DNA of 64,000 nucleotides from Bacteroidota bacterium (GCA_013298545.1 JAAFIA010000007.1:19590-83589); one strand, 5' to 3'; shown: positions 7,800 through 27,107, counted from the stretch's first letter. The notes: generated from the sequence alone by a model not told the origin. Translations and numbers: made by a program.

Positions 7800-7820
7800 A
7801 ATTCCTAGTTTAGAAATAGT

Positions 7821-7858
7821 AAAATCCCAACTTGATTATTCGGGTTGGGATTTTTTGT
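7821..7858 (+). terminator. Rho-independent terminator after paaE
   Basis: The stem aatcccaac / gttgggatt is 9 bp and is followed by tttttt. Confidence 0.7.
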
Positions 7859-7910
7859 GCACTAAAAGATAGCACGAACGATATAAAAAACACATCAACA
7901 CAAACTCATC

Positions 7911-8062
7911 AGCGTTTGCAACGCGGATGCACGAGAAGCGTTAGCCCAAGGCTAATAACGCGCATTGCATTAAATCTTCTTAAAACGAATTTAAATCTTT
8001 CAATAATTCTTATTTCGCGTTGCAAACGCGAATCTCGGCCCAACGCGTTGCAAACGCGTTGG
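7911..8062. repeat. Three copies of a near-palindromic hairpin motif, GCGTT-GCA-AACGC
   Basis: The three copies are agcgtttgcaacgcgg (7911–7926), tcgcgttgcaaacgcga (8015–8031) and ccaacgcgttgcaaacgcgttgg (8040–8062). The last has a perfect 10-bp stem with a 3-nt loop. Confidence 0.6.
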
Positions 8063-8216
8063 AGCATCAACTCATCTAATAATATGTATTTCAAATAATT
8101 AATGTTCCGAACAGTAATGATTTCAAATCCTGCGGAGCGTGCGTGATTTAAAAAATATTGTCTTTATATATTTCAGTCATCACAATTTCCTCATCACCCT
8201 CATTTCTCATACCTTA

Positions 8217-8380
8217 GTAACTGTTTAAATTTTATCCTTTGATTTTGTTATGCGCCTTTTTGCACCATACTTCGTTGCGTTTTTCGACCGTAGCCGCCCT
8301 GCTATGGCCTTCAAAACACGCCTCGTCTGGCACAAAAAGTCATCATAACAATTCTCAAAAACAAATTTTAAACAGTTACT
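8217..8380 (+). repeat. Copy 1 of a dispersed repeat of about 165 bp with 13–14 bp terminal inverted repeats (MITE-like; could also be a small structured RNA)
   Basis: Its ends are gtaactgtttaaa ... tttaaacagttac. It is near-identical to 38083–38246, and to 62353–62516 in reverse orientation. Confidence 0.7.
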
Positions 8381-8408
8381 TAGACCAAACTAAAAAACCA
8401 CCCTACAC

Positions 8409-8918
8409 ATGAAACCAGCAGATTTTGTAAAAGCGTTTTTGCCTTTTGCTAAAAAGACCGAAGAAAAAACAGGCATCAGTGCCATTGCTATTCTCGCACA
8501 AGCCGCCCTTGAAAGCGGTTGGGGCGAAAAAGCGCCGGGCAATATGTTCTTTGGCGTAAAAGATACCGACGGCCTCAATGGCAACGAACAATTGCTAACT
8601 ACAACAGAATACAGCCGCCGTTCGGATTTGAAATTTCCAGAAATCATCAGCATTACGCCTGTGGTTCGCAATGGTCAAAAGTATTTCAAATACATCGTGA
8701 AAGATTATTTCCGCAAATACAAAACACCGGAAGAATGTTTCACCGATCACACTAAATTTTTCTTCGACAATAAACGCTACAAAGCAGCATTAGCAGTACG
8801 TCAAGATCCATACAAATTTATCGACGAGATTGCTAAAGCGGGTTATGCTACTGCTCCAGATTATGCCGTCACGCTAAAAAAAGTTGCGGCTACCATTGAA
8901 AAGAATATCCCTAAGTAA
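8409..8918 (+). CDS. Glucosaminidase-domain protein (GH73, FlgJ/mannosyl-glycoprotein endo-β-N-acetylglucosaminidase-like)
   Basis: AILAQAALESGWG is the hallmark of the glucosaminidase domain. 169 aa with no signal peptide. Confidence 0.7.
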   Translation: MKPADFVKAFLPFAKKTEEKTGISAIAILAQAALESGWGEKAPGNMFFGVKDTDGLNGNEQLLTTTEYSRRSDLKFPEIISITPVVRNGQKYFKYIVKDYFRKYKTPEECFTDHTKFFFDNKRYKAALAVRQDPYKFIDEIAKAGYATAPDYAVTLKKVAATIEKNIPK

Positions 8919-8937
8919 ACGTTTTTGCAGCGCACGG

Positions 8938-9140
8938 GCTGACGCAGACTTGAGACGCAGACTTGAGACGTGAGACGTGAGACTGGAGACTTGAGACAGG
9001 AGACTTGAGACTTGAGACTTGAGACGCAATACAACAAGAGAAACAGCGCGAAGTGCGGAGAGCGCGAAATACTCGCTCTGTTTCTCCGCTCTTCGCTCTA
9101 AAACTATGCGGTCTCATATCTCTCATGTCTAAAAACTATA
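8938..9140. repeat. Array of 7-bp tandem repeats (ACTTGAG / ACGTGAG / ACGCAG, about 13 units), an internal hairpin, and a gtctcatatctctcatgtct tail related to the locus at 2536–2662
   Basis: The sequence reads gacgcag acttgag acgcag acttgag acgtgag acgtgag actggag acttgag acaggag acttgag acttgag acttgag. Inside it, gagaaacagcgcg...cgctctgtttctc is an inverted repeat. The tail shares gtctcatatct with locus 1. Confidence 0.6.
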
Positions 9141-9278
9141 CCGAACTAACGCGCAAATTACAAAGCACCGATCTTAACACACAACAGTTTACCCAACAAA
9201 AAATCCATCCCGAAAACGGAATGGATTTTTTTATGCTTTGCTACTTGTTCTTTTGGAACTTGGAAATTCACTTTCTGA

Positions 9279-10196
9279 TTACCACTGATTGCCTTCTTTT
9301 TTGCCAACAGAAAATCCGCGTGTAATGTTGAAGCCTAACCGAATGCCGCCCTTCAAAGGATTGCCACGGGTGTATGGAATAAATTGTGCTTCGTTCATGG
9401 CAAATGCGTTGGTGAAGTGCATTTGAAAAACGTGACCGCCTGTTTCGAGATCGAGGCCGATGGCCATAGGATTGTAGAAGGAATCGAAATTGGCGCTGTA
9501 TTTATTGAGTCGCTGTGCGTACTCAAACGTAATGGCCATACGCTGCGTGAGTTTGATACGACCAGAAATGCCCGCAGCAAACATATCGTTCGAGTCTTCG
9601 ATGCGTTGTACCATGTTGTAGTGTATGTAAAAACCATTCAGTTGCAACGACACTTTGGAATTGAATTTACGCGCAAGCGTGAGTGTATGCACATACGACA
9701 AGCGTGAGGTAAAATATTGGTAAATATCGACACCGGTGGCTGCTTTGTTTGGATCGTTTTGCGAAGTGCAGTTCATCGTTGCTTGATAAGTCATCGACAA
9801 AGGCATTTTATTGTCGGTGGTTTGGCGCAAGATGCGGTATTTAAAACCGCCGTCGAATAATTTCTCGAACGAGCTTCGACCAATTGTTGCCATCAAGCGC
9901 GAATTGATGCCATAATTAAATCCGATGCGAATTGAAGCTGGACCATCCAATCCAAATAAATTTTGTGCGCCAGAATTAAATTCTCCAAAACGGTGACTGA
10001 TGTTAAAATCAAGTACACGTTCGCCAACCGTTTCGTTGGTTGGAAAATTGATTAAGTGGTGCGATTTAAATGTTGCCGATACATAATCGGGGCCATCGTC
10101 ATTTTGGCTATTCTCCGCAGCAAGCAAACTATCTAAGTTCTGAGCAGCAATGCCCGATGAATATGCAAGGAAGAAAAGGAGTAAAAATTTACGCAT
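9279..10196 (-). CDS. Hypothetical outer-membrane β-barrel protein with a signal peptide
   Basis: It starts MRKFLLLFFLAYSSGIAAQ. The alternating hydrophobic pattern is rich in G, N, F and Y, as in a porin. Confidence 0.45.
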   Translation of the reverse strand: MRKFLLLFFLAYSSGIAAQNLDSLLAAENSQNDDGPDYVSATFKSHHLINFPTNETVGERVLDFNISHRFGEFNSGAQNLFGLDGPASIRIGFNYGINSRLMATIGRSSFEKLFDGGFKYRILRQTTDNKMPLSMTYQATMNCTSQNDPNKAATGVDIYQYFTSRLSYVHTLTLARKFNSKVSLQLNGFYIHYNMVQRIEDSNDMFAAGISGRIKLTQRMAITFEYAQRLNKYSANFDSFYNPMAIGLDLETGGHVFQMHFTNAFAMNEAQFIPYTRGNPLKGGIRLGFNITRGFSVGKKEGNQW

Positions 10197-10217
10197 ACAA
10201 GAAGTATTGAAAGAGGA

Positions 10218-10598
10218 TTAATTATTGGGAGCACCAGCTTGAACCCATTTGCGAATCTGTGTCAACTGACAAGGCTGTAATTGAGGGTTGTTTGAAGGCA
10301 TTTGGCTAAATCCTGCCTGATGCTCAACAGCACCAACAAGTTGCCCACTTGCTGCAACGGCCTGTACTCCAGCATAGGTATCTAAGGTAACATTGCCCGA
10401 TGGCGATGCGGTAGAATGACACGAGAGGCAATGATTTTGCAAGACAACAGTAACGTGTCTTGAATACGAAATTGTACCAGCCGTATCGCATGAATTATTG
10501 AGCAGTAATTGCGGATATACTTCTTCGGCTTTGTCATAATAGCAGCCACTCAAAAGTGCGGTCGCAGCGAGTAGTGTAAAAAATGTTTTCATAAGCAT
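10218..10598 (-). CDS. Small lipoprotein with a CxxCH heme-binding-like motif (cytochrome-c-like)
   Basis: Lipobox LLSGC. The motif is LQNHCLSCHS. The C-terminus WVQAGAPNN is paralogous to that of the neighbouring gene. Confidence 0.45.
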   Translation of the reverse strand: MLMKTFFTLLAATALLSGCYYDKAEEVYPQLLLNNSCDTAGTISYSRHVTVVLQNHCLSCHSTASPSGNVTLDTYAGVQAVAASGQLVGAVEHQAGFSQMPSNNPQLQPCQLTQIRKWVQAGAPNN

Positions 10599-10600
10599 GA

Positions 10601-10975
10601 TTAGTTGTTTTTAGCCCCTTGTAAAATCCAAATTTTGATCAGCAGGATATTACGATCTGTAAGCGCAGGATAGGGCGCGCGCGGCATAAAATCGTCGCCA
10701 CCAACATCCGTTATTGCTTCATAGAGTTTGCTATCGTCAGCATTGCCTGCTTTTACTTTCGATAAAATATCGGTGTAGGTAATGAGTTCAAATTCGGAGG
10801 TATTTACTGTTCCATGACAACCCGAATGCTGACAATTGGCCTGAATAATCGGATAAATTTCATCTGTAAATGAAATTTGTCGTTCTGGCAATACGGTATC
10901 GTGCTTACACGCCGATTGTACAAGCATGAGTATAAGCATCATGAAGAATAAAGAAGATACGATTTTGATTTTCAT
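10601..10975 (-). CDS. Small lipoprotein, paralogue of the preceding gene, with an atypical Cx4CH motif
   Basis: Lipobox VQSAC. The motif is ANCQHSGCHG. The C-terminus is WILQGAKNN. Confidence 0.45.
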   Translation of the reverse strand: MKIKIVSSLFFMMLILMLVQSACKHDTVLPERQISFTDEIYPIIQANCQHSGCHGTVNTSEFELITYTDILSKVKAGNADDSKLYEAITDVGGDDFMPRAPYPALTDRNILLIKIWILQGAKNN

Positions 10976-11065
10976 AAAGATTAGCTTGATTAGAGGCTGG
11001 AATAAAACAAAAGTACTGTTTTTTGGACTGGGCTACCTGCACGAATTACGGTAATGCCTGTACAA

Positions 11066-12667
11066 TCACCAAACAATTTTTCGAGCAATGATAAAGACAA
11101 ACAATGACCCAAACAGGACAACCATCAACCACGCCAGATAATCGCCATAGCGGGTATAAAATGTTTCTCCTTGTGTGGAATAGATGCGTTGCTTGATAGC
11201 CGTCTCAACCCACCATGCCGTTGCTTGCTCAATATCGCCGCGCTGATTGATGAAACAAGAAATTCCAGTATTGGCCGAACGCGCAATGCTTTTACGCGTT
11301 TCTATCGCGCGAAGTCGTCCGTAACGCAAATGCTGCCGATAGCCAGGTGTATTGCCCCACCAACCATCATTCGTAATGATGAAAATAAAATCGGCACCCA
11401 GCCGCACATAATCGCCCACATAATCGCCGTAAATAGATTCGTAACAAATCACTGGGGCGATTTTCCCCTGCCCTTTTTTCGGCGCAACAAAAATTTCGCG
11501 ATCATCTTGCATGCCCAAGCTACCCGATGTTCCTCCCAAATCAATGGCAAAATTTTCGAGTGGTTTGAGAATTGCGGGGAAAGGCATTTTCTCTACACCC
11601 GGAACCAATTTCGATTTGTGGTAAATCTGCACTTCGGGCATGCTATCAATTTGCAAGGCCGTATTGTAACTATCAAACGAGCCGGGCATATTTTTAAACT
11701 TCCGCGCTGTTGCAGAAAGTTTATCGCCCTCTTCATAAATTTTTGCTGTGGATGCTCCTGTTACAATCTTAACACGTGGGTATTTTTTTTGAAAATCGCG
11801 AAGCATGCGCACACTTGTACTAAACTCCAACTGATGTTCCCAAATGTCTTCTACCAAAGCCGTTTCCGGCATCACCACATAATCTGTTGTCGAATCCATT
11901 TTACTTTCAGCCAATTTTAACATCACTTCCAATTGTCCCCGAAAATCGGAATTGAACTTCACATAAGGATCAATATTGGGCTGTACCACAACCACATTCA
12001 ATCCATACGTACGATTTGCCGTAACATCAAAACGCGAATATTGCACCAGCGAAATGACAATCGGAATAAAAAGCAACACCGCTGTTGTACTCCACCAAAC
12101 AAGGCGTTTCGGCCATTCACGCATCCAGGTATTGCGATTGCTCCAGCATTCAAAAAGCAAAACATTGATGAGCAAAACCCAAATACTTCCACCAAATGTG
12201 CCCGTGTATTCGTACCATTGAATGAGTGCAGGCGAATCGGCAAACCCATTTCCGAGTGTCAGCCAAGGCCAAGAAATATCCCAGTAATGATGCAAAAATT
12301 CAAAACTTACCCAGACCGGAATCAATGCAAATGATCCGATGCGTACAGGTAAAAAACGTTTGATTTTATGGAAAACCAAAAATGTCAAAGCCATGAGCAA
12401 ACTATTACTCACCATAGCCATCACAGAACCGCCAGCCGATGAAATCCAAACCCACCAAGTACAAACCACATTCCAGATCAAGAATGCCACAAATGCGTAC
12501 ATATAAAGATGTCGCGCACGCAAGCGATTGTCGGTACTCACAGTTTGCTGCATGAGCAACAGCGGAATAAACGCTACAAACAGTAATGGTGAAAATCCCC
12601 AATCGGGCCAAGCCGCACACAACAAGACTGACGAAACAAAAGACCACAAAAAAAGTTTCCCGCGCAT
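11066..12667 (-). CDS. lnt: Apolipoprotein N-acyltransferase
   Basis: 533 aa with a multi-TM N-terminal domain and a carbon-nitrogen hydrolase domain that includes the VICYESIYGDYV catalytic-Cys region. Confidence 0.85.
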   Translation of the reverse strand: MRGKLFLWSFVSSVLLCAAWPDWGFSPLLFVAFIPLLLMQQTVSTDNRLRARHLYMYAFVAFLIWNVVCTWWVWISSAGGSVMAMVSNSLLMALTFLVFHKIKRFLPVRIGSFALIPVWVSFEFLHHYWDISWPWLTLGNGFADSPALIQWYEYTGTFGGSIWVLLINVLLFECWSNRNTWMREWPKRLVWWSTTAVLLFIPIVISLVQYSRFDVTANRTYGLNVVVVQPNIDPYVKFNSDFRGQLEVMLKLAESKMDSTTDYVVMPETALVEDIWEHQLEFSTSVRMLRDFQKKYPRVKIVTGASTAKIYEEGDKLSATARKFKNMPGSFDSYNTALQIDSMPEVQIYHKSKLVPGVEKMPFPAILKPLENFAIDLGGTSGSLGMQDDREIFVAPKKGQGKIAPVICYESIYGDYVGDYVRLGADFIFIITNDGWWGNTPGYRQHLRYGRLRAIETRKSIARSANTGISCFINQRGDIEQATAWWVETAIKQRIYSTQGETFYTRYGDYLAWLMVVLFGSLFVFIIARKIVW

Positions 12668-12694: not shown

Positions 12695-12940
12695 AATTAG
12701 AAAGTTTTGAATTTTGAAATTGGCGAATTTGAAATTAGTGAATTAGCAAATTGGCGAATTGATGAATTTGTTAATTCACCAATTCGCCAACAAAAAAGGG
12801 GCCTTGAGCGCGAGGAAAAAATTTACCAATTACGCGCAAGCATGCGCGAGGGAAAAATTCGCCAATTGCGCGCAGGCATGTGCGAGGGAAAATTCACCAA
12901 TTCGCCAATTGCGCGCAGGTACCTGCGAGGGAATATTATT
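12695..12940. repeat. Repeat-dense intergenic region: multiple AATTCGCCAATT / AATTGGCGAATT boxes in both orientations plus about 3.5 tandem copies of a 36-bp unit
   Basis: The tandem unit is aattcgccaattgcgcgcaggcatgtgcgagggaaa. The hairpin ttggcgaattg...caattcgccaa has an 11-bp stem. The units are contiguous with no unique spacers, so this is not a CRISPR array. Confidence 0.6.
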
Positions 12941-13457
12941 CCATATCACCAAGATCAATTTCTGTTAATGCTGCATCAACAAAATCTTCGTCTTTTTGTG
13001 AGTAGCCGGGCATATTTTCGTTCAAATCTTTATCTAAATCAGCATCCGAAACGGGATTATCATTCATAATGGCTTCGTCATCTTTGTCAAATGCTGTTCC
13101 TTCGGGAGCTTGACCTTTGTTTGCTTGAATGGCAAGTATGGCGAAATGGCGGGCGCGGCGGGCTTGGTGCATGGCGCGTAAAAATTTACCTTCCAAGAAC
13201 AGGCGACGTGCGAAGCGTTGATGTGCGACAGCGCGGGCAAGATTGCCGGTGTAAACTTTGTTTTGTTTCACCATCTTTTGTGCGTGGCGGATGACAATGG
13301 CGGTGCGGCGGATGACGCGGCGGGCGTGTATTTTATCGGCTTGGCGTTTATGGGCTTGTGCGCGGGCCGCGCGGGGGCCACGTTGTGCAGCAGATTCGGT
13401 TGGCGTGAATAGACCTGCCAACAAGAAAAGGACGAGGAGAAAACGTGCAATGCTCAT
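12936..13457 (-). CDS. Hypothetical secreted protein, N-terminal half Arg-rich and C-terminal tail acidic
   Basis: Signal peptide MSIARFLLVLFLLAGLFTPTESAAQ. It lies immediately downstream of the porU-like gene on the same strand. Confidence 0.4.
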   Translation of the reverse strand: MSIARFLLVLFLLAGLFTPTESAAQRGPRAARAQAHKRQADKIHARRVIRRTAIVIRHAQKMVKQNKVYTGNLARAVAHQRFARRLFLEGKFLRAMHQARRARHFAILAIQANKGQAPEGTAFDKDDEAIMNDNPVSDADLDKDLNENMPGYSQKDEDFVDAALTEIDLGDME

Positions 13458-13524: not shown

Positions 13525-16500
13525 TTAACGCATCAAGTACATCTTCCCAACTCCTTGTGTGATGTATGTATCTGCCCCACTTTCCCGATGCTCAATTTCC
13601 GAATCATTCAAGCGTGTAATGATGCGGTACAAATACACCCCATTCGCCAATGGATCGCCAAACTCATCGCGGCCATCCCAAGCATATTCCGTAATGTTCC
13701 GACCAATGTGCATCGGACCAAGTTCGTCCTGATCAATCTCACGCACCACTTTTCCGGTAATCGTCATGATCTGAATCGTAAAAATCTGCGGCACTTCCGA
13801 ACCTGTCAACGTAAACACAAATTTCGTTGAGGAGGTAAACGGATTGGGATAATTCAACACATTCGTAATGCTCGGTTTATTGACCACTTCAAACTGAATT
13901 TTATAATCTAAAAACCCAGAATTGTTATTGCTTCTATCTTTTGCCTGAATAATCAATTCATACACCCCATCTTCTGTCAGCAAAGGCGAAAGGAAAATTT
14001 TGCAACTGTTGTTTGGCAATACCGCTGGCGTAAATTGCATCACACTTCCCCAAGGCACGACTTGCGCTGTTTGTTGCGAAGGTGCGCGCATAAAAATTCG
14101 GAAATCGGCCGTATCATTTAGTGCCAAGAACTGATTCTCATCTTTCAATTGAATCAGAATTTGCGGACGGGCCGATACAATATCGCCATTCAAAATATGC
14201 ACACCATCAAACGTTACATCCATGAGCGGATTGATACGATCCGTTCCAATGTAAAAAGGCAATTTCAACACATTGTTGAAATGATATTGTTCCAATTGCG
14301 ATTTCGGTTTTCCAATCGGATTCACTTCCAGCCACAATTCATTTTCTCCGGCAAAACCTGTTGTACTCACCACCAGCGAATCGATAAACGATGCGCCAGC
14401 AGCAAATGGCGGAACACGCAATTGATCGGGCAAATTATGCACCACACGGTTTGCATCAACGATCCAATACGAAATCAACAAACTATCTGTAAACGAATAA
14501 TCGCTCACGTTCTTTACACCAAGTGTTAACCGCAACGAATCGCCTTCTTGCAATGTATCGTTATAAAACGAAAAGGCAAGTGGCGGATGCAAAGCTGCTT
14601 CTGGAACGGGCGCATACAAAACCTGCCAACGATCCATTTGTGGCGGTGTTCGGCTCGTATCGTCTTTCATGCGTGCTAGCAATTGTAAATACGGATATTG
14701 TTGCGCGTTGGCATACGCACTCAAGTTCAACACATCGATCGAATCTTCTGGAAATGTGTGCAGCAAAACAGGCAATGCACTCATCGACGTATATCCCAAA
14801 ACCTGCAATTCCACCTCATCGCCATCGGGCTGCTCAACCGCCGTTTGTCGCCAATGCAGCGAACCCCATGTTTGTGCCGGACCAATCAAGGTTGATCGAA
14901 TATAACCGTCGTTCCAATTGGTTATCAACGAATCGTTGAGGTAAATAATATCGGTCTGACTTGTTCCAACAACTTCATGCGCAGTTCCCATTGCACCGCC
15001 TTGCGTACCGAAAATAATGAACGATGTGGTATCTGAAATATTCCGAATCTGGTTGCTGCCAATATTTTCAATCGCGTTGTATAGCGCGTTTTCATAACGC
15101 GGTGCATTGTGGTAATGTTGACTGTAAATAAGCACTTTGTAACCCGCAGGAATACTATTCAAAAAAGCAGTCATCGAAGGCCGCCATGTCGAATCGACAT
15201 CGACAAAATCATAAGCATAAAGCGTTTGATTGGTAACGCAAATGGCATTTCCATTTGGACCAAGATGCACAATGGTATCGCTAAACGACCAAGCATTTCC
15301 ACTTACCGGATCAAATACGGCGATGGAAACACCGGGCAAGCCATACAAGCCCAAACCGCAACTAAAAATATGCTGTGTTGCTCCATTTATTTTGTACCAT
15401 ACTTCATTCCAAGGAACAGCAACACCATACAAACCATTTTTTACTTGAAGCGTTTTTATATCGTTTACAAATTCAAAATTTCGTTGCAGACGGTTGTAGG
15501 TAACATATTGATAATCGTCGTTTTTGAATTGGAAGAAATGCGCTTGACTCCAACCGGTTTTTCCAACAATGTATTGAAACGATGTTTCGCGCCACACCAA
15601 ACGATCAGATGGCGAAACCGAATCAGGACTAACACGCCAAAAATAAACCGTACTGTCTGTGAAGGTAACGGGAGGTTTCCACGATACCACACCGCCTGGC
15701 GCAGTAACGAGTGTAGTTTGCAAAAATGGACTGTTGAACAAATCGGTTGTATCCATTTCAAAACGATACGTGCGGATCGGTTCGAGCGGATCGGCTGTCG
15801 AGGCTTTTAACGTTACCGTGTCGGTTGGAATAACCGCATATTCATACGGCCAAATCGGAACAAGCGATTTACCATTGATGAGCAAATCAATATCGGGAAT
15901 TGTGGTGTTGTTCGTTTCCAACAACTCTGGAATTTGTCCGTAAAAATCGAGCGAAATGCGAATGCGATTCAACCCAATGCCGCGCTGAAAATCGACTGGA
16001 ATACGAAACGCTAACGTATCGCGGAATGTGGGTGTAGGCACTTGCAAGAAAACAGTCGATGTATCGCCATTCGGGAAACGGCGCGCCAATTGCACAATGA
16101 TGGTATCGTTAATCGCACGTCCAAGGTTTGTAATTTTTGCATAAACCGTAATCGTATCCAAATCGCTTGTTTGATCAAACCACACATCCGAATTCTGGAT
16201 TGCGTAATCTGGCTTTTCATGTGCATTAATCACAACTGACGGATCGCCATGCAAGGTCATTTCCAAACACGTTGATTTTATTTGAATCGAATACGGCAAG
16301 GCATTTTGTGTGCGGTAAACCGTTTGCTGAATACACGATCCCGCAGATTGGCCGTAATTGGTTTGCCCAATCGCTTCATACAGTCGGAACGTATATTGAT
16401 CGAGATAACCAGAAAGCCCAACGCCCACAGAAGCCACATAGCCAATCACCCCTTTATCTTGGATCAAGACAAACGACTCGCTCGAACTGATTCCGGGCGA

Positions 16501-18522
16501 ATGTAAATCGCCTGCGTAGCACGAATTGGCAATCAAAAACGGATAATGATCTTGATTGTTATACGTCGAAGGATCGTCGATACTTTGATCAAAACCAGTT
16601 CCAGAAGCATGCCCAAAAAATGTCATGATCGAAACACCGGCTTCAATGCGTTGGCGCAACGAATCGGATTGATTGATTTGAATGGGTGCGCTGCTCGTTT
16701 TTAAAAATGTTTGTACTGTTCCACCAAAAAGTGTGTCTTCGATAATGCGCTCGTAATTGCTCAAGTAGCTTGCAAAAACCGCTTGTTCGCCACTTCCAGT
16801 TCCGCCGCCAAAATGTAAGACATACTTCATCCATTCTTCCGCCGTATTGTTTTCATAATCGCGCACCTTATCCAAATACCAATTTGCTTGAACCGTATCG
16901 GGCGCGGCAATACGCCCTGTTGCAATGGCTGGTTCCCAAAGCGTTCCATTGAGTCCGGCAGTGAGCGCGTTATCACTCGGCGGATAGCCATAAGAAGGCA
17001 CAAGCGATAAATTGTAATAGGTGGAACTACGCGCATACTCGCCATAAATGGATTTGCCCAGCAACAATAAATACTTCGGTTTCGATGGCGATTGCTGAAT
17101 GAGGTAATCAGCAAAACGACGAATGCCTAACGGATTTTTTCCAATGCCATGCGCAAACTGATCGTACAATTCAGACACATCGGCAAGTACCACATGATGC
17201 GCACCACCAGCCGCACTTTGCCGGTACTGCTGATAATCGAGGGCCGATGACCATAATTTGCGATGTGTAAGAATCACAAAAGAAGAATCGCCAAGTAGCG
17301 TAGAGAAATCAGTGAATACACCTGTGCCATTGACAGGAACGAGTTGCGTAATATTTTGAACCGACGATTCAGCAGCCATGACAAACGATTTCTCCGAACC
17401 ATTTCCGTTTGGTACAAGTGCTTTGTACACGCCATTTGCAAAAACAGCGTCGATGCGTTTGTGGTTGAAAAAATCATACACCCGCACAGGCGAATTGCCA
17501 GCATTGATGTTTGAAATCTCTAACAAAGATTTTGGCGCATTTTGATTGTCTGGAAGCGATCCCGCAAACCACGAACGCCCTTCCAAATCAAACGTATGCG
17601 GATAACGAATATCAATATAAGCAATGGCAGTCAATCCCGAAGAAATAGACGCATTGTTATTCAAACTAGAAACGGTGAATGTGGTTGAAGAACCGAGTGC
17701 AGCAGCCGGATTGATAAAACTATAATAACCCGTTTTATAGCCATCATACGAAGTATCGAGTTGCGTAGAACCAAACTGAATGCGAATAAAATTATCATCG
17801 CCCAGCGAAGAAAAATCATTTGATTGACTGGCTACTTTCATCGTAATGCGCGCATCAGGCCCGCCTGCGTATGCGTTGCGCGTATTGAGGGCACGACCAA
17901 TGCTTCCGCCGTAACCGATTGGTTGATCCATAAATCCTTCGGTAGGAATAAACATGGGATCGGTAATTCCAAACGCATCACTTTCGCCATTGAAGTATTG
18001 GTAACGACCACTAAAAAATTCGAGGTTGGTAAAAAAAGGTGTAGGCGAATACGTTGAGAATGCGGTATCGTTATCTACAAGCAAACGACGGTTGGTGAGA
18101 GACGTATTCCATGTTAGAAAATAAACTGCCGTATCGTTGTACAAACTCATGTACGGATTGGGCTGATTGGCGGCACCTGCGTATTGCAAAGAGTCTAAAT
18201 AGCCATCGTTGCTTCGTGCAAAAAACTCGATGAAGTCGCCGGAATTAAATGTACCGTCGGTTTCGCCAGAAACATAAATGTAATTTTCTTCGCCCCGTGC
18301 AAAGAGTTGAAAATTCCGCGGATCAATGCTTGCGAGCGAAGCACCTACCGAGGCAAGCGAATTGGCAAGCGTGGCCGAATCGAGGCGATACAAGCCATCT
18401 TGCGTGATTTTAATTTTGAGGTATTTCTGGGCATAAACAATCCACTCATTCCCAAACGTCTGTGCATTTAGACGTGGAGTAAGCAAAAGCAACAAAACAA
18501 AAATTCGTAGCAATGAACGCAT
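13525..18522 (-). CDS. porU: PorU-like T9SS C-terminal signal peptidase / sortase (peptidase family C25, gingipain-like), unusually long
   Basis: Signal peptide. The His–Cys dyad region reads FFGHASGTGF...ANSCYAGDLH, with the Cys near residue 680–690 as I recall for PorU. The C-terminus has a β-sandwich CTD-like tail. The gene is adjacent to a PorV-like gene. A start at 18558 instead of 18522 is possible. Confidence 0.55.
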   Translation of the reverse strand: MRSLLRIFVLLLLLTPRLNAQTFGNEWIVYAQKYLKIKITQDGLYRLDSATLANSLASVGASLASIDPRNFQLFARGEENYIYVSGETDGTFNSGDFIEFFARSNDGYLDSLQYAGAANQPNPYMSLYNDTAVYFLTWNTSLTNRRLLVDNDTAFSTYSPTPFFTNLEFFSGRYQYFNGESDAFGITDPMFIPTEGFMDQPIGYGGSIGRALNTRNAYAGGPDARITMKVASQSNDFSSLGDDNFIRIQFGSTQLDTSYDGYKTGYYSFINPAAALGSSTTFTVSSLNNNASISSGLTAIAYIDIRYPHTFDLEGRSWFAGSLPDNQNAPKSLLEISNINAGNSPVRVYDFFNHKRIDAVFANGVYKALVPNGNGSEKSFVMAAESSVQNITQLVPVNGTGVFTDFSTLLGDSSFVILTHRKLWSSALDYQQYRQSAAGGAHHVVLADVSELYDQFAHGIGKNPLGIRRFADYLIQQSPSKPKYLLLLGKSIYGEYARSSTYYNLSLVPSYGYPPSDNALTAGLNGTLWEPAIATGRIAAPDTVQANWYLDKVRDYENNTAEEWMKYVLHFGGGTGSGEQAVFASYLSNYERIIEDTLFGGTVQTFLKTSSAPIQINQSDSLRQRIEAGVSIMTFFGHASGTGFDQSIDDPSTYNNQDHYPFLIANSCYAGDLHSPGISSSESFVLIQDKGVIGYVASVGVGLSGYLDQYTFRLYEAIGQTNYGQSAGSCIQQTVYRTQNALPYSIQIKSTCLEMTLHGDPSVVINAHEKPDYAIQNSDVWFDQTSDLDTITVYAKITNLGRAINDTIIVQLARRFPNGDTSTVFLQVPTPTFRDTLAFRIPVDFQRGIGLNRIRISLDFYGQIPELLETNNTTIPDIDLLINGKSLVPIWPYEYAVIPTDTVTLKASTADPLEPIRTYRFEMDTTDLFNSPFLQTTLVTAPGGVVSWKPPVTFTDSTVYFWRVSPDSVSPSDRLVWRETSFQYIVGKTGWSQAHFFQFKNDDYQYVTYNRLQRNFEFVNDIKTLQVKNGLYGVAVPWNEVWYKINGATQHIFSCGLGLYGLPGVSIAVFDPVSGNAWSFSDTIVHLGPNGNAICVTNQTLYAYDFVDVDSTWRPSMTAFLNSIPAGYKVLIYSQHYHNAPRYENALYNAIENIGSNQIRNISDTTSFIIFGTQGGAMGTAHEVVGTSQTDIIYLNDSLITNWNDGYIRSTLIGPAQTWGSLHWRQTAVEQPDGDEVELQVLGYTSMSALPVLLHTFPEDSIDVLNLSAYANAQQYPYLQLLARMKDDTSRTPPQMDRWQVLYAPVPEAALHPPLAFSFYNDTLQEGDSLRLTLGVKNVSDYSFTDSLLISYWIVDANRVVHNLPDQLRVPPFAAGASFIDSLVVSTTGFAGENELWLEVNPIGKPKSQLEQYHFNNVLKLPFYIGTDRINPLMDVTFDGVHILNGDIVSARPQILIQLKDENQFLALNDTADFRIFMRAPSQQTAQVVPWGSVMQFTPAVLPNNSCKIFLSPLLTEDGVYELIIQAKDRSNNNSGFLDYKIQFEVVNKPSITNVLNYPNPFTSSTKFVFTLTGSEVPQIFTIQIMTITGKVVREIDQDELGPMHIGRNITEYAWDGRDEFGDPLANGVYLYRIITRLNDSEIEHRESGADTYITQGVGKMYLMR

Positions 18523-18582
18523 GCACGTTTGTTTTGAGCCTCGCTTCGCCTTTGCCAAGTGTCATTGGCATGGGTCGGACGA

Positions 18583-19665
18583 TTAGCGGGGCTTTTTGTT
18601 AATGTCTATACGCAACGAAAATACATTGGAATACAGCGCAACAGAATTGTCGCCAATATCGGTCAATGCATAGTCGATGGAAAATCCTTTTAAACGAAGA
18701 CCAAGACCCATGTTGGGTTGAATGGTTGTAACATCTTTTCCGAACACATCTTTTGCTTTTTGCAAATTGCCTAAACCCGCACGGAGATAAATGATGTCTT
18801 TGAATCCGGCTTCAATGCCCATCAAAGGCTCCATGCTCCACAAATTTGTGCGCAGCAAAACATTGCGTTTTCCGTCAAATGTATTTACGAGGTTCACCTC
18901 GCCAAGGATTGAGAATTTTTTTCCGAGCAAAAATTTACGCGATGCGCCGAGCAACAACCGCGGCAAAGTCAATTCCAATGAATTTTCGGGAATGACATTT
19001 CCTGTTGCAGCAAATACATCTTGCATTTCGGGACTTAAATCAAAACTCCAGGCATTGAAGGTTGACGTAACATCGCGCAGTGAAGCACCTAACTTCCAGT
19101 TTTTATGGTCGTACTGCATGCCTGCATCGAAGCCAAAGCCCCAAGCTCCTGCAAAATCACCAATTTTACGACGAATGATTTTAGCATTGGCTCCAAAACG
19201 CATTCCGGGTACAAACATTTTTCGCGCATACGAAAACACAAACGCATAGTCTTGTGCAGAGAATGTAGTAATGCGATCATAGTCGATATTGCCACCCGCA
19301 TCGATCAGTTGTGTCGTATTCGGAATATCGTCAACAGCAAAACGAATAACGCTTACGCCAAATGTGCTTACGCTATCTATTGGTGCTGCGATTGCGCCAT
19401 AATCGTACTTGGCAATGGATGCAAAATACTCGGCATGTTGCAAGCCAACTTGAAGGTTTGATTTAACACCCAACAAACCAGCCGGATTCCAATAACCCGA
19501 TGTAACATCATCGCACGAAGCAACTTGCGCTCCTGACATGCCAAGCGAACGCGCGCCAACGCCAATGGCTAAAAATTCGTTACTGTATTTAGGCGCTTGT
19601 GCCCAAACAGATGCAGCATGGACAAGCAGAACAGCGACAAGGATAATTTTCTTCAAGAGGCTCAT
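18583..19665 (-). CDS. porV: PorV/PorQ-family (LptO-like) T9SS outer-membrane β-barrel
   Basis: About 360–390 aa with a signal peptide and an NEFLAIGVGARSLGMSGAQVA N-terminal motif. It is adjacent to the PorU-like gene. The start was chosen at MSLLKKIILVAVLL. Confidence 0.5.
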   Translation of the reverse strand: MSLLKKIILVAVLLVHAASVWAQAPKYSNEFLAIGVGARSLGMSGAQVASCDDVTSGYWNPAGLLGVKSNLQVGLQHAEYFASIAKYDYGAIAAPIDSVSTFGVSVIRFAVDDIPNTTQLIDAGGNIDYDRITTFSAQDYAFVFSYARKMFVPGMRFGANAKIIRRKIGDFAGAWGFGFDAGMQYDHKNWKLGASLRDVTSTFNAWSFDLSPEMQDVFAATGNVIPENSLELTLPRLLLGASRKFLLGKKFSILGEVNLVNTFDGKRNVLLRTNLWSMEPLMGIEAGFKDIIYLRAGLGNLQKAKDVFGKDVTTIQPNMGLGLRLKGFSIDYALTDIGDNSVALYSNVFSLRIDINKKPR

Positions 19666-19717
19666 AAACAATTGTTTAAAAATACAGATTTTGATCCGAA
19701 CGACCAAAAACGGTTTT

Positions 19718-20656
19718 TTAACGAATATATTGTGCAAAATCGTTTGCAAACACATGCGAAAAACGCCTGCTGCCCATGCGGTTCATGTGCGAAGGGTCGG
19801 CAAAACAAGCGTCGTCGCTACACATTTCGGAATTGCTGTAATCAAACAAGCGAATGCGTTCTGCTCCGGCAAAATTGCGTACAAATTGCAACAGTGTTTC
19901 GTGGTTTGTAATATGCGCTGTCAATGCTTCATGAATGGGTGAAATCACAAACACCAATATTATGTTTCTGGCTTCACATATTTTTTTGATGCGTAGCAAT
20001 TCAGCCGGAATGTGTTTTGGAATCGTTACTTCACGATTGTACAAAGCAGTAATTTCTTGTTTCAAGGAAGAACGCACGGGTGGCAAAACAGGCGTATAAC
20101 CTTGTACAACGGTTGTGTCATACTGCCCCAACTTTCCGGTATAACCACGAATAGCGGCATTGATGTAACGCGTTCCGAAATAAGGCATGCTGTATGGTGC
20201 AACGTATTTGAACAAAGGAAAACGAGCATCGCGTTTGGAAATTCCTTCTTGCAATTTTTTATTCGCGAGGTAAGGGAAATAACGCGGAAACAAATACACC
20301 GTATCGGGCGGATGATCGAAGGTATGCCAATCGACATTGAGTACAACGTATTGCGGCGGTGGGCTGTTTTCGAGATACGCTTCGAATGTGGTAGCAATGA
20401 AGGGTAAGGTTGCGCCACTCATACCGATATTGAATGTTTTCAATCCGGTGGCGGAATCAAATGCGGGAGGATAGCAATGACCTTCGGCGCGTGATGAGCC
20501 GATGATTAAAATATCGCAGGGTGTTTTTTCGAGAAAGGCTTGACGCAAACGGGCAAACTCGCCTTGTTTATTTTTTCGCACACCCGTATAGAGCACTTCG
20601 CGCACAGCATAAAGCAGCGCGAGTGTGAGGACGGAATAAATCAGTGCGCGTTTCAT
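19718..20656 (-). CDS. DltD/AlgJ-like SGNH-fold partner protein of the MBOAT acyltransferase
   Basis: 312 aa with an N-terminal TM anchor and the motif ILIIGSSRAEG (GDS-like). Its start overlaps the MBOAT stop, which suggests translational coupling. Confidence 0.45.
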   Translation of the reverse strand: MKRALIYSVLTLALLYAVREVLYTGVRKNKQGEFARLRQAFLEKTPCDILIIGSSRAEGHCYPPAFDSATGLKTFNIGMSGATLPFIATTFEAYLENSPPPQYVVLNVDWHTFDHPPDTVYLFPRYFPYLANKKLQEGISKRDARFPLFKYVAPYSMPYFGTRYINAAIRGYTGKLGQYDTTVVQGYTPVLPPVRSSLKQEITALYNREVTIPKHIPAELLRIKKICEARNIILVFVISPIHEALTAHITNHETLLQFVRNFAGAERIRLFDYSNSEMCSDDACFADPSHMNRMGSRRFSHVFANDFAQYIR

Positions 20657-22074
20657 CAGAAGTGAAAATAGATAAATTCATTGGCACTAAACTGCCCCAG
20701 TGTAAATAAGAGCAGAACAAGCACGACATAAAACATGGGTCGAAGAAACGTTATGTACACCTTGGATTTTTTTTCGGGCGAAAATTCTTCGTGTGCTTCT
20801 TTTGCAAAAAGTAAAGCGATCATCAACCCCGCTAAGGCGAGTGGAAACAAATCGTTTAAATAACGCAATTCCCAAAACGCTCTGGTGATGTGCCAATCGA
20901 AACTAAAAATGCGTTCGTAAAAAACACCTAAATCGTGCGTGGATTGGGCGCGGAAGGCAATGAGCGAAAGTGTATGAAAAGTAAGGAGGTAAATCCAACC
21001 CGCCCAGCGCAGTCGTTTCAATGCGCCAAAGCGCTCCACAACAAGTATTTCGATGATGTAAAAAACACCATGCATCGCGCCCCAAAGCACAAACGTCCAT
21101 GCTGGCCCATGCCAAAATCCACTGATGATAAACGTGAGAAATAAATTGAGCAACCAACGCGGACGCGAACAACGGCTTCCACCCAAACCGATATACAAAT
21201 AATCGCGAAACCAAGTAGTCATCGAAATGTGATTGCGTGTCCAAAATTCGCGCAGCGATGTTGACAACAGTGGCCGTTTCCAGTTGAGTTGCAATTCAAC
21301 CCCAAAGAAACGCGCTACACCAGTAGCGATATCCGTATAACCTGAAAAATCGGCATACACTTGCACCACAAAAAAGAATCCGGCAACCAACAAAGTCAAG
21401 CCCTGATAGGTTTCCGGCGCATCGAAAACAGGATTAACAAAATCGGCAAGCCGATCGGCGATCGCAATTTTTTTGAAAAATCCCCAGACAATTAATCGTA
21501 CCGATCTAAAAAAAACAGCTTCGTTTAACGGTTTTGGCTGAAGTAATTGCGGCATCAAATTGCCGTAACGCTCTACCGGCCCTGCAACAAGTTGTGGAAA
21601 GAACGAAACATACAATGCAAAATTGGTCAGGCTTTTTTCGGGCTTTTGTTTGTTTCGATAAATATCAATCGTGTAACTCATCGACTGAAATGTATAGAAC
21701 GACAAACCAGCAGGGATCACCCAATTTTGAATCAAGTTGTTGGTCGATCCAAAAAGTTCCATTCCCGTATTCCAAAATAACGCACCGTATTTAAAAACGG
21801 CCAATACACCGAGATTGATCGCCACACTTAAGACCAACCATTTTTTGCGCGTGGGTGGTGTTGCTGAAAGACTAATCTGTTGTCCAATAAAAAAATCGAA
21901 ACACGTGGTGGCGAGCAGCAAAATGGCAAACCAAGGATGAACGAAACTGTAAAAAAAATAACTTGCGCCGAGGAGGAAATAATTTCGAAAATCACCATCA
22001 AGCAATCGCCAGACCAGCAATACAAGTGGAAAAAATAAAAGAAAAGAAAGGGAATTGAATTGCATAGGCGACAA
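20656..22074 (-). CDS. MBOAT-family membrane-bound O-acyltransferase (AlgI/DltB-like)
   Basis: 472-aa polytopic membrane protein with the conserved His region FWHGPAWTFVLWG. Confidence 0.8.
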   Translation of the reverse strand: MSPMQFNSLSFLLFFPLVLLVWRLLDGDFRNYFLLGASYFFYSFVHPWFAILLLATTCFDFFIGQQISLSATPPTRKKWLVLSVAINLGVLAVFKYGALFWNTGMELFGSTNNLIQNWVIPAGLSFYTFQSMSYTIDIYRNKQKPEKSLTNFALYVSFFPQLVAGPVERYGNLMPQLLQPKPLNEAVFFRSVRLIVWGFFKKIAIADRLADFVNPVFDAPETYQGLTLLVAGFFFVVQVYADFSGYTDIATGVARFFGVELQLNWKRPLLSTSLREFWTRNHISMTTWFRDYLYIGLGGSRCSRPRWLLNLFLTFIISGFWHGPAWTFVLWGAMHGVFYIIEILVVERFGALKRLRWAGWIYLLTFHTLSLIAFRAQSTHDLGVFYERIFSFDWHITRAFWELRYLNDLFPLALAGLMIALLFAKEAHEEFSPEKKSKVYITFLRPMFYVVLVLLLFTLGQFSANEFIYFHF

Positions 22075-22301
22075 CTACAAAGCTAGGAAATGTCGGGCAA
22101 GAAATTCCGGTTACAAATGTTTGCCAGCGTAATAAAAAACGGCAAGCCAAACCAATCCTTTAATCAGGAAAAATAAAAACCCGAGCAATCCGATGCGTTT
22201 GAGATAAAGGATAATGCGGTCGCGGTTCATCACGCAAATATAGGTATTGCGCCTCAAGAAAGATACGGTTCAAAAAGTCGATTATTCAAAAAGATTAACC
22301 C

Positions 22302-26156: not shown

Positions 26157-27107
26157 TTAATTCCAAATTTTTTCTTTGTCCCAATCCGTATAAAAACCCA
26201 TTTTCTGAATGTCGATATCGGGATATTGCTCAAATAATAGTTGCAAGCGTGATTTCAATGTATTATGCATCGAAGTCGATTTCACCAGCTGTTGAAGGCA
26301 ACACAACGTTACAAACAATTTCCGAACATCGATAGGGATATTTGCATCTATCAGTCTTCTATTTTTTTTAGTGGGTAACATGGGTTGTTTTACCAAATTC
26401 CGTCGCCAAAGCAATCCATGGTGAGCACAAATATTTCTGATATAACTCAATGCTGCCAACCAAGACTCCAAATAATCAGGAATCGTCCCAAAATAACTAG
26501 CAATGTTTCTTTTTTCTTCCGAAGATTTTAGCTGCTTATAGATCTTAGAAAGTTTCCCAAACGAAATTGACTCCATCGTGATCCAAGATGGTGGCAATTC
26601 GGCATTGGGTGGAATGGAATAATGATTGAAATACTGTTTCACAAACGGATGGTCGCAATCTTTGTGGCAATCTGTTTTAATGAATGAAATCAAATCATCG
26701 TGTGAATCGTAACCCGTTGTTTGATCGATGATTTTCACAACAAAATTCGCTTTGTCCAAAAACCAAGTTGCCCCATGGCGAAGCGAATAGACATTGACCA
26801 ATTGTGTACGAAGGGCAATTTCGATTTGACTAGTATAGTCAAATATCAGCAAGCGCATGGCAAAGTCAAAATCGTAGAGTTGGATAACCTTATCGAAATG
26901 CGTAGCTGGTTTAAATTCTTTTTTAAAACCTGTATCTTGTTGTGGCAGATAAAAGGAAACAAAATAGGATTTAAGCCTTTGGTAACTAATCCGATTTAAC
27001 TGTTTTTCGATGGTTTTCAAATCGGCATCCGTTTCGATGCTCAATTTTCTGGTTTTAAGAAGTTCAATCTGTTCTGCGATTGACAAAGGTGGCTTTGAAT
27101 ACAACAT
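26157..27107 (-). CDS. Abi_2-family abortive infection protein (AbiD/AbiF-like)
   Basis: The N-terminus LSIAEQIELLKTRKLSI matches the Abi_2 pattern. About 316 aa. The gene is AT-rich compared with its neighbours. Confidence 0.65.
   Translation of the reverse strand: MLYSKPPLSIAEQIELLKTRKLSIETDADLKTIEKQLNRISYQRLKSYFVSFYLPQQDTGFKKEFKPATHFDKVIQLYDFDFAMRLLIFDYTSQIEIALRTQLVNVYSLRHGATWFLDKANFVVKIIDQTTGYDSHDDLISFIKTDCHKDCDHPFVKQYFNHYSIPPNAELPPSWITMESISFGKLSKIYKQLKSSEEKRNIASYFGTIPDYLESWLAALSYIRNICAHHGLLWRRNLVKQPMLPTKKNRRLIDANIPIDVRKLFVTLCCLQQLVKSTSMHNTLKSRLQLLFEQYPDIDIQKMGFYTDWDKEKIWN

Follow-up and report, generated by a model that had tools for sequence, protein, structure and literature searches.

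A candidate acyl-Tyr-shuttle O-acyltransferase pair beside porV2 and porU2 in Bacteroidota

To our knowledge, the only case in which the mechanism of T9SS cargo attachment to the cell surface has been resolved is that of PorU, PorV, PorZ and A-LPS in P. gingivalis. In O-acyltransferase systems the FxYxxF motif and its acyl-Tyr mechanism have been shown experimentally for PatA and DltX, and the characterized bacterial MBOATs that combine this motif with an SGNH partner all acylate a cell-envelope polymer (PMC12148441). Here we analyse a locus in which a predicted MBOAT–SGNH pair stands directly upstream of genes for PorV-like and PorU-like proteins. The locus lies in a 64,000-nt stretch of a Bacteroidota genome (GCA_013298545.1, JAAFIA010000007.1:19590-83589), referred to below as the window. 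A sequence-only reading of the window had supposed that such a linkage is undescribed for T9SS, and we likewise found no paper joining T9SS with an MBOAT.

Organization of the gene block

ORF calls place five genes in file on the minus strand, encoding an MBOAT, an SGNH protein, a PorV-like protein, a PorU-like protein and a protein of 173 aa. The MBOAT O-acyltransferase gene occupies 20656–22065 and encodes 469 aa from an ATG at 22065, which is likely to be the start rather than the TTG at 22074 (472 aa). It overlaps by 1 nt at 20656 (TGATG) the gene for the DltD-like SGNH acyltransferase partner (19718–20656, 312 aa), and a gap of 52 nt then leads to the gene for PorV2, an outer-membrane protein of the PorV/PorQ family. 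The longest ORF of the PorV-like gene is 18583–19755, within which translation almost certainly begins at the ATG at 19665, given that a signal peptide comes next and that the homologues are about 360 aa long; this gives a gene at 18583–19665 and a protein of 360 aa. PorU2 is encoded at 13525–18522 (1,665 aa) from an ATG that precedes the signal peptide, with an alternative TTG extending the gene to 18558, so that the gap from PorV2 is 60 nt or 24 nt, respectively. After a further 67 nt comes the gene for the Arg-rich secreted 173-aa protein (12936–13457), which lies outside the 13525–22074 interval to which the sequence-only reading was assigned. The ORFs and junctions thus bear out that reading's description of five minus-strand genes separated by tiny gaps or overlaps.

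That reading had also treated the acyltransferase and porV–porU blocks as a single operon, and it is consistent with this proposal that no consensus terminator or promoter was found in the internal gaps of the block. A regex scan found no −7 box in the SGNH–PorV2, PorV2–PorU2 or PorU2–173-aa gaps, and two such boxes precede MBOAT on the same strand. The first, TATATTTG (22235–22242), matches the Bacteroidota −7 box (TAnnTTTG) and lies within the 227 nt between the upstream dehydrogenase gene and the block; this single match is weak evidence, because the motif occurs on that strand at a density of 0.47 per kb. The second, the −7-like box TAGCTTTG (22078–22085), lies 12 nt upstream of the MBOAT ATG and is a candidate promoter of the block. 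Between the dehydrogenase gene and MBOAT there is also a hydrophobic 39-aa ORF (MNRDRIILYLKRIGLLGFLFFLIKGLVWLAVFYYAGKHL; 22111–22230, minus strand). It has no homologue in 108 related loci (tblastn E<0.1), is probably not a gene, and is not DltX-like because it does not end in an FxYxxF motif.

The 52-nt SGNH–PorV2 gap contains a weak hairpin followed by a U-run, a predicted structure that may act as an attenuator. A tandem repeat at 12808–12937 (three to four copies of a 36–43-bp unit), within the 268-nt spacer before lnt, probably marks where the transcription unit ends; its fold is not significant (z = −0.46). The layout makes it moderately probable that the MBOAT, SGNH, PorV2 and PorU2 genes share one transcript.

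Proteins of the block

The first gene product is an MBOAT, as had been proposed. It scores 79 bits against Pfam PF03062 (cutoff 27) and is homologous to DltB in the PDB (E 2e-23), and its sole NCBIfam match is the DltB equivalog TIGR04091, on which it scores 120 bits, short of the 375-bit cutoff. The MBOAT catalytic residue, His319, is kept in 35/35 homologues. The protein ends in the hexapeptide FIYFHF (residues 464–469, including Tyr466; 20659–20676, minus strand), which fits the FxYxxF acyl-shuttle motif, and the pattern F[IV]Y[FT][HQS]F directly precedes the stop codon in all 36 of 36 homologous MBOAT genes.

The SGNH protein has an N-terminal membrane helix at residues 2–27, a GSSR motif at residues 53–56 (20489–20500) and a D287xxH290 motif (19787–19798). 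In an alignment of 44 sequences no substitution is seen at G53, S54, S55, R56, N76, G78 or H290, and D287 is conserved in at least 90%; across 39–41 loci the Ser, Asp and His residues are kept with a single exception, an Asp-to-Asn change. The AF2 model has a pLDDT of 96, and a Foldseek search with it ranks DltD first (3bma, 6o93 and 6pfx; E 6.5e-6 to 3e-5), with GDSL/SGNH hydrolases next. Pfam gives a weak DUF1574 match and nothing else. The assignment as a membrane-anchored DltD-like SGNH protein, which agrees with the earlier reading, is therefore well supported by model and alignment. Assignment to the PatB, AlgJ or AlgX type was considered and rejected: there is no ALGX-type Pfam match at E<0.01, and no PatB (7TJB) or AlgX structure is among the 50 Foldseek matches listed. 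The wider DltD-like family comprises 717 representatives at E<=1e-30, which indicates that such pairs occur in many contexts. Together, the conserved residues and motifs suggest that the MBOAT–SGNH pair is very probably an acyl-Tyr-shuttle O-acyltransferase.

The next two genes had been read as porV and porU. They do belong to these wider families, but as the paralogues PorV2 and PorU2 and not as the canonical proteins. The PorV2 model NF052325 is passed with 496 bits (cutoff 325), the PorU2 model NF052324 with 702 bits (cutoff 450), and the PorV/PorQ family model NF033709 by PorV2 with 109.5 bits (cutoff 90). Canonical PorV (NF033710; 36.5 bits, cutoff 250), PorQ (80 bits, cutoff 220) and canonical PorU (NF033707; 221 bits, cutoff 420) were each rejected. 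PorV2 is at least 63% identical to its best-scoring 120 protein clusters.

In PorU2 a signal peptide leads into an N-terminal half that resembles PorU and contains a C25 domain (Peptidase_C25, PF01364, 180 bits); a run of Ig-like domains, which includes an ILEI-like insert, is also present. The PorU2 catalytic dyad is conserved, with His638 kept in 84/84 aligned tblastn segments and Cys668 in 82/83. The AF2 model of the C-terminal half (pLDDT 87) contains β-sandwich domains that match P. gingivalis PorU (6za2) and MG-domain proteins; PorZ is absent from the 50 structure matches listed for this half. At the C terminus there is a weak type A CTD (TIGR04183, 19.6 bits against a cutoff of 23).

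PorV2 is present in more than 590 species-representative genomes. It adjoins PorU2 in most of 80 genome loci, and many of the loci that carry the acyltransferase pair show a 4-nt overlap between the two coding regions. Cargo with CTDs of type A and of type B is likewise encoded in the window, indicating that the organism has a T9SS. PorV2 and PorU2 may thus be a putative paralogous second pair for T9SS cargo processing or attachment. Both proteins fail the canonical models, and the biochemistry of PorU and PorV (CTD removal and A-LPS attachment) is therefore an extrapolation here. NF052324 and NF052325 are NCBIfam annotation models labelled 'putative' that make no mention of an associated acyltransferase, and our literature search found no papers describing the PorU2 and PorV2 families or experiments on their role.

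The fifth gene product is secreted; its N-terminal part is basic and helical, and its tail is acidic. It has no Pfam or NCBIfam match, CTD models included, and it is found between PorU2 and lnt, at 60–68% identity, in only five loci, all in the clade of the window.

Conservation of the arrangement and the acceptor of the pair

The order and orientation of the MBOAT, SGNH, PorV2 and PorU2 genes are repeated in 35 other loci from related uncultured Bacteroidia. The arrangement is therefore not unique to this genome, as the sequence-only reading required, but neither is it general: in species-representative genomes the pair stands beside PorV2 in 13/71 evaluable PorV2 loci (18%), drawn from three clades. 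A few insertions followed by vertical inheritance would explain this pattern. The pair-bearing loci all come from uncultured MAGs. A search that started from the SGNH protein recovered the MBOAT–SGNH–PorV2–PorU2 order in 22 of 25 evaluable metagenomic loci, with a median gap of 48 nt. The 1-nt MBOAT/SGNH overlap is found in the window and 10 other loci, and the arrangement is kept while identity drops to 29–34% for SGNH and 39–46% for PorU2.

We propose that the block consists of two two-gene modules, MBOAT–SGNH and PorV2–PorU2, which would probably be expressed as one transcript from a promoter upstream of MBOAT. The first module would be an O-acyltransferase of the PatA/PatB type. Its polytopic MBOAT would most likely draw an acyl group from cytoplasmic acyl-CoA, with acetyl-CoA the best-guess donor because no DltA/DltC-type carrier gene is among the annotated neighbours. 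His319 would then form an ester on the protein's own Tyr466, in FIYFHF, at the periplasmic face. The GSSR serine of the SGNH protein (triad Ser54/55, Asp287 and His290) would receive the acyl group from the MBOAT and, at the outer face of the inner membrane, hand it to a hydroxyl on an acceptor in the envelope. The second module would comprise the PorV/PorQ-like PorV2 barrel and the giant C25 Cys/His peptidase PorU2, which would carry its own T9SS sorting domain. The link between the modules would be a shared molecule, a lipid-linked glycan or some other acceptor in the envelope, which the acyltransferase O-acylates and which the PorU2 module uses or encounters. In some other lineages an analogous enzyme, an AT3 membrane acyltransferase, might do the same job from the same slot.

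As a complete chain, from acyltransferase pair through co-transcription to a PorU2-tied acceptor, this proposal is tentative, and we put it somewhat short of an even chance. That the acceptor is functionally tied to PorU2 and PorV2 is, from gene context, possible at somewhat less than even odds; the link is plausible and no firmer because different genes can occupy the slot upstream of porV2 and because the pair is also kept at sites apart from PorV2. A stronger form is unlikely, namely that PorV2 and PorU2 are a second self-contained T9SS attachment module whose anchor or cargo must be O-acylated at the periplasmic face of the inner membrane, with the MBOAT and DltD-like pair or an AT3 enzyme, encoded directly upstream of porV2, serving interchangeably in different Bacteroidia lineages. 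A dedicated acyl-Tyr-shuttle O-acyltransferase in a PorU2/PorV2 operon, if correct, would give the first clue to the substrate or anchor chemistry. A PorU2-tied acceptor would be a new acceptor class for MBOAT–SGNH systems, and on the stronger form O-acylation would be a previously unrecognised step in the anchoring of T9SS-dependent surface proteins.

The alternative that survives best is that the pair is an independent cassette for O-acetylation of an envelope polymer (peptidoglycan, O-antigen/LPS or exopolysaccharide), working by the same acyl-Tyr mechanism, which landed in a permissive site between a PssA-like gene and porV2 and was inherited vertically, read-through into porV2 being incidental. 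This account has a substantial chance of being correct, if less than an even one. It accords with the fact that only a minority of PorV2 loci, spread over three clades, have the pair, and with the size of the DltD-like family. PssA adjoins MBOAT upstream in most pair-bearing loci and adjoins porV2 in loci that do not have the pair, which is the signature of an insertion. Within an MBOAT-bearing clade, three loci (L052, L062 and L070) have lost or replaced the pair, and the slot can house unrelated cassettes: in L052 it holds a transglutaminase-like gene and a membrane protein, and elsewhere a methyltransferase, FdhD or IF-2. In two lineages (L094/L096 and L101/L104) the pair, although not next to PorV2, is intact and keeps its motifs.

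Against an independent cassette stand the very short SGNH–PorV2 gaps (median 48 nt, 36 loci) and the DltD-like, rather than PatB/AlgX-like, character of the SGNH protein. The block also stays intact when its upstream flank changes, as in the window and two other loci (L020 and L095), and an AT3 gene turns up beside porV2 in three separate clades. In L039 and L056 it immediately precedes porV2 on the same strand, and in L036 and L012 it lies close by on the opposite one. Synteny carries less weight here, because the divergent PssA-like gene and the downstream lnt are kept over the same distances as the block, indicating that gene order is sticky in this region even where no transcript could be shared. 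Junction breaks number two lineages for SGNH|PorV2 compared with about four for the non-operonic PssA|MBOAT junction, a difference that is not clear-cut.

In a further reading, whose cargo variant the sequence-only reading had named, protein and not glycan would be the target of the pair. Eukaryotic MBOATs (Porcupine, Hhat and GOAT) acylate secreted proteins, and the operon context would fit a pair that O-acylates T9SS cargo, or PorU2 and PorV2 themselves, in periplasmic transit. We consider this very unlikely, since the characterized bacterial FxYxxF MBOATs with an SGNH partner all act on envelope polymers (PMC12148441) and the block contains no conserved cargo gene, the 173-aa protein having no CTD and being confined to its five loci. 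A Dlt-like aminoacylation, in which the free amine of the ester would be the nucleophile for PorU2 transpeptidation in the manner of the seryl amine of the P. gingivalis A-LPS linking sugar, draws on the amine acceptor that PorU-type sortases require (PMC10202324), the DltD match of the SGNH partner and the DltB match of the MBOAT, but is the most improbable reading, given that no DltA, DltC or DltX is among the genes annotated at about 6.7–31.8 kb of the window, that the MBOAT itself bears the shuttle motif, as do PatA and AlgI, which use acyl-CoA, whereas Dlt has it on a microprotein, and that the score of the MBOAT on the DltB equivalog model is far under the cutoff.

Comparison with known systems

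The AT3 O-acetyltransferases of the Oac/OafA type are likewise membrane enzymes with envelope glycans as substrates at the periplasmic face, and they take the slot of the pair in L039 and L056. They differ in having another fold and in being single proteins, and none is present in the block of the window. An unannotated AT3 candidate lies at 40185–41174, 18 kb from the block; a family search with it gave no match.

The DltB/DltD/DltX system, which D-alanylates lipoteichoic acid, resembles the pair in the DltB-homologous core of the MBOAT, in the DltD match of the SGNH protein and in the shuttle motif. By contrast, the window locus has no DltA, DltC or DltX, the motif is fused to the MBOAT, and the DltB equivalog score is 120 bits (cutoff 375). 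The host is a Gram-negative Bacteroidia organism that has no teichoic acid.

With P. gingivalis PorU and PorV, the second module shares the C25 His/Cys dyad and PorU-like Ig domains of PorU2 (which aligns to 6za2), a PorV2 that is likewise of the PorV/PorQ family, and adjacency of the two genes. However, PorU2 exceeds PorU by about 500 aa and includes additional Ig-like and ILEI-like domains, in the window porV2 precedes porU2 with no PorZ or PorQ partner nearby, and the canonical cutoffs are failed.

PatA/PatB, the peptidoglycan O-acetyltransferase of Neisseria and Campylobacter, shares with the first module the MBOAT catalytic His, the fused C-terminal FxYxxF motif, a separate SGNH partner with one N-terminal helix, and genes that are adjacent or overlapping. 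The window differs in that the partner is DltD-like, there is no ape1 esterase gene, and the pair is followed by porV2 and porU2.

The minus-strand gene block and its PorU- and PorV-like proteins

The window encodes T9SS cargo proteins with type A and type B CTDs, and the organism therefore has a T9SS. Their genes form a cluster (49276-50565, 53637-54551, 57547-59745 and 60083-62047) with one type B and three type A CTDs. One of the type A genes carries an ExeM-like nuclease region, and a TonB-dependent receptor gene (54626-57496) sits among the cargo genes.

Five minus-strand open reading frames with tight junctions, proposed in the sequence-only reading, were confirmed in place. They encode an MBOAT protein (20656-22074 from a TTG; an ATG at 22065 gives the typical MQFNSL... 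N terminus), a 312-aa SGNH-like protein (19718-20656), a PorV-like protein (18583-19755 as the longest open reading frame), a 1,677-aa PorU-like protein (13525-18558) and a 173-aa Arg-rich secreted protein (12936-13457), the last just beyond the range of that reading. For the PorV-like gene we favour a start at 19665, which is supported by the length of its homologues (about 360 aa). One base is common to the MBOAT stop and the SGNH start (TGATG at 20658-20654), and the other gaps, counted from the ATG preceding each signal peptide, are 52, 60 and 67 nt; the 60-nt gap, between the PorV- and PorU-like genes, shrinks to 24 nt if an upstream TTG is the start. The block is flanked upstream by the housekeeping genes for MgtE and a 2-hydroxyacid dehydrogenase and downstream by lnt. 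The spacer between the 173-aa gene and lnt contains a tandem repeat (12808-12937; 3-4 copies of 36-43 bp, motif ...CCCTCGCnnnnGCCTGCGCGCAATTGGCGAATT...) with no significant predicted fold. The same strand also carries, shortly after lnt (9279-10975), a gene for a DUF5777 membrane β-barrel protein, accompanied by two small lipoprotein-like open reading frames (126 and 124 aa) without a family. Elsewhere on the minus strand, an Abi_2 (abortive-infection-like) gene (26157-27107) lies between mutS and a gene for a KsgA-type rRNA dimethylase.

The initial labelling of the two T9SS-like proteins as canonical PorU and PorV has to be revised. Canonical equivalog models failed (PorU, 221 bits against a cutoff of 420; PorV, 36.5 against 250; PorQ, 80 against 220), whereas the NCBIfam models for 'putative T9SS sortase PorU2' (702 bits, cutoff 450) and 'putative type IX sorting system protein PorV2' (496 bits, cutoff 325) passed, and we relabel the proteins as putative PorU2 and PorV2. 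A literature search found no paper on either, the name matches being artefacts of superscript citation numbers. PorU2 retains the C25 peptidase domain and its catalytic dyad, of which His638 is conserved in 84 related loci and Cys668 in 82. The additional C-terminal half of PorU2 consists of consecutive Ig-like domains, together with an ILEI-like insert and a weak type A CTD. An AF2 model of residues 870-1665 (pLDDT 87) is likewise a chain of Ig-like β-sandwiches plus an α/β insert, for which Foldseek returned complement/α-2-macroglobulin MG domains and PorU (6za2). A fusion of PorU with PorZ was rejected, no PorZ-like propeller being among these matches.

Conservation and transcriptional context of the linkage

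PorV2 was detected in more than 590 species among species-representative genomes, and the best 80 loci, all from MAGs labelled Bacteroidia or Flavobacteriales-like, were kept. PorU2 follows PorV2 in most of these, with Lnt directly after PorU2 in about 35. Of these loci, 71 extend far enough upstream of PorV2 to be evaluated for the MBOAT-SGNH pair, and 13 of them carry it as the immediate upstream neighbour, in the same orientation. The proposed MBOAT-SGNH-porV-porU order thus does recur, but as a minority feature. The commonest upstream neighbour (52 loci) is a divergent PssA-like CDP-alcohol phosphatidyltransferase gene. In MBOAT-bearing loci this gene adjoins MBOAT on its upstream side, so the pair looks inserted between pssA and porV2.

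Searching from the other side, with the SGNH alignment, recovered 28 metagenomic loci. MBOAT is directly upstream of SGNH wherever upstream sequence is available, and PorV2 and then PorU2 follow directly downstream in 22 of 25 evaluable loci, at SGNH identities down to 29-34%. The adjacency therefore extends beyond this genome, and about 35 loci reproduce it. Between SGNH and porV2 the median spacing is 48 nt (36 loci), and a 4-nt overlap of porV2 and porU2 is frequent. Searchable literature yielded no description of an acyltransferase pair linked to T9SS genes, in agreement with the original impression of novelty.

In a neighbour-joining tree of PorV2, MBOAT-bearing loci fall into three clades: one that contains the window and in which all members carry the pair; a second in which it is mostly present, with three nested losses or replacements (loci L052, L062 and L070); and a small third (L011, L087 and L020). 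In L052 a transglutaminase-like protein (425 aa) and a polytopic membrane protein (378 aa) without a family match occupy the PssA-porV2 slot (7455-9865). Unrelated genes fill the slot in other loci too. Genes for sizeable polytopic membrane proteins (about 430-540 aa) directly precede porV2, in the same orientation, in L012 (8368-9858), L014, L018, L079 (8517-9932), L060 (1212-2834) and L071 (1282-2655), and in L020 (6299-7585) such a gene is upstream of MBOAT rather than directly of porV2. Pfam and NCBIfam searches assigned no family to the slot polytopic proteins of L012, L014, L018, L020, L052, L060, L071, L079 and L008. Genes for AT3-family acyltransferases (PF01757) adjoin porV2 in loci of differing clades that lack the pair, either directly upstream on the same strand (L039 8860-9861; L056 2904-3908) or nearby on the opposite strand (L036 8717-9655; L012 7176-7913).

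Envelope-lipid enzymes flank PorV2-PorU2 in many lineages (for example L003 6755-7528 and L022 9045-9878; window 11066-12667), and the window retains Lnt and lacks PssA. These PssA-like and Lnt flanks may point to a lipid-linked acceptor for PorU2, or may be no more than conserved synteny. In L017 and L021, PorV2 (about 10061-11071) is followed directly by Lnt (from about 11153 and 11240, respectively) with no match to PorU2, which this lineage has therefore either lost or relocated.

Scans for sigma-70 promoters and intrinsic terminators gave counts at or below shuffled expectation and no match inside the intergenic gaps. Bacteroidota-type -7 boxes occur twice upstream of MBOAT and are absent from the internal gaps. 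In the 52-nt SGNH-porV2 gap, a weak hairpin with a U-run after it may be an attenuator. Across loci, the strict form of the box, TAnnTTTG, occurs upstream of MBOAT in 1 of 22 cases, in the SGNH-porV2 gap in 2 of 36, and upstream of porV2 in loci without the pair in 18 of 66, a distribution of little diagnostic value.

Relationship between the two modules

A functional tie between the modules is plausible. In the form we favour, proposed tentatively and at somewhat less than an even chance, the pair would O-acylate a lipid-linked envelope glycan used by the PorU2 module. The tight spacing of the block, the persistence of the arrangement across deep divergence, the integrity of the four-gene block despite a changed upstream flank (the window without PssA, L020 and L095), and the recurrence of the analogous AT3 enzyme at porV2 in different clades all favour this. 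About equally likely, the pair is a self-standing cassette for envelope O-acetylation whose place beside porV2 is fortuitous. The minority distribution of the pair could reflect few insertion events, the slot accepts unrelated genes, and regional synteny extends even to genes with no possible common transcript, the divergent pssA among them. The SGNH/porV2 junction is broken in two lineages, not clearly different from the non-operonic pssA/MBOAT junction, broken in about four. In the two lineages with a broken SGNH/porV2 junction, the pair adjoins a lone GldN-family gene (L094/L096) or a PHO4 transporter (L101/L104). The GldN-family gene of L096 (6163-7002, minus strand; PF19841, 234 bits) is convergent with the pair and is followed by genes for ribosomal proteins L35 and L20, not by gldKLM. 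The DltD-like family is also large (717 representatives at E ≤ 1e-30 and 5,513 at E ≤ 1e-10), only its top 30 or so members resemble the PorV2-linked branch, and 148 fetched representatives include none that lies close to porV2 in a locus lacking the pair; names and sources of the family's representatives gave no information on context. The linkage is a worthwhile lead, although all its carriers are uncultured MAGs, which limits its value.

The MBOAT-SGNH pair and known acyltransferase systems

The MBOAT protein matches Pfam MBOAT (79 bits) and has DltB as a homologue in the PDB (E 2e-23), but scores far below the cutoff of the DltB equivalog model (120 against 375 bits). It ends in FIYFHF, immediately followed by the stop codon. 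All 36 homologous MBOAT genes encode F[IV]Y[FT][HQS]F as their final six residues, the FxYxxF 'acyl shuttle' motif, and His319 is kept in 35 of 35 homologues. No significant family match was found for the 312-aa protein. In an alignment of 44 homologues GSSR, N76, G78 and H290 are invariant, D287 is present in at least 90%, and the N terminus is a hydrophobic helix; across loci the catalytic residues Ser54/55 and His290 never vary, and Asp287 is replaced by Asn once. The best PDB matches of its AlphaFold model (pLDDT 96) are DltD structures from three species, with generic GDSL/SGNH hydrolases next. Because of these motifs, the model and its matches, the initial SGNH/DltD-like label is right.

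In PatA, the motif Tyr is auto-acetylated from acetyl-CoA, which requires the conserved MBOAT His, and PatB, the SGNH partner, then receives the acetyl group; the Dlt system carries the FxYxxF motif on the microprotein DltX (PMC12148441). No DltA, DltC or DltX gene was found near the pair. A hydrophobic 39-aa open reading frame (22111-22230, minus strand), directly behind a TATATTTG box in the spacer 5' of MBOAT, was rejected as a DltX-like microprotein: it lacks a terminal FxYxxF and has no homologue in 108 loci. Conserved in no related locus, it is probably spurious.

Given the terminal FxYxxF, the conserved His319 and SGNH residues and the lack of nearby DltA, DltC and DltX genes, the pair is best read, from sequence, predicted structure and published mechanism, as a PatA/PatB-type acyl-CoA-dependent O-acyltransferase with a DltD-like partner. 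We infer both its acyl group and its acceptor. We are confident that the pair is a new subfamily within an already known type of system. As in PatA/PatB, FxYxxF ends the MBOAT protein itself, with a DltD-like partner in the window; in Dlt, by contrast, the motif is borne by DltX. The window PorU2 and PorV2 differ from canonical PorU and PorV in falling below the canonical cutoffs, whereas PorU2 keeps the C25 domain.
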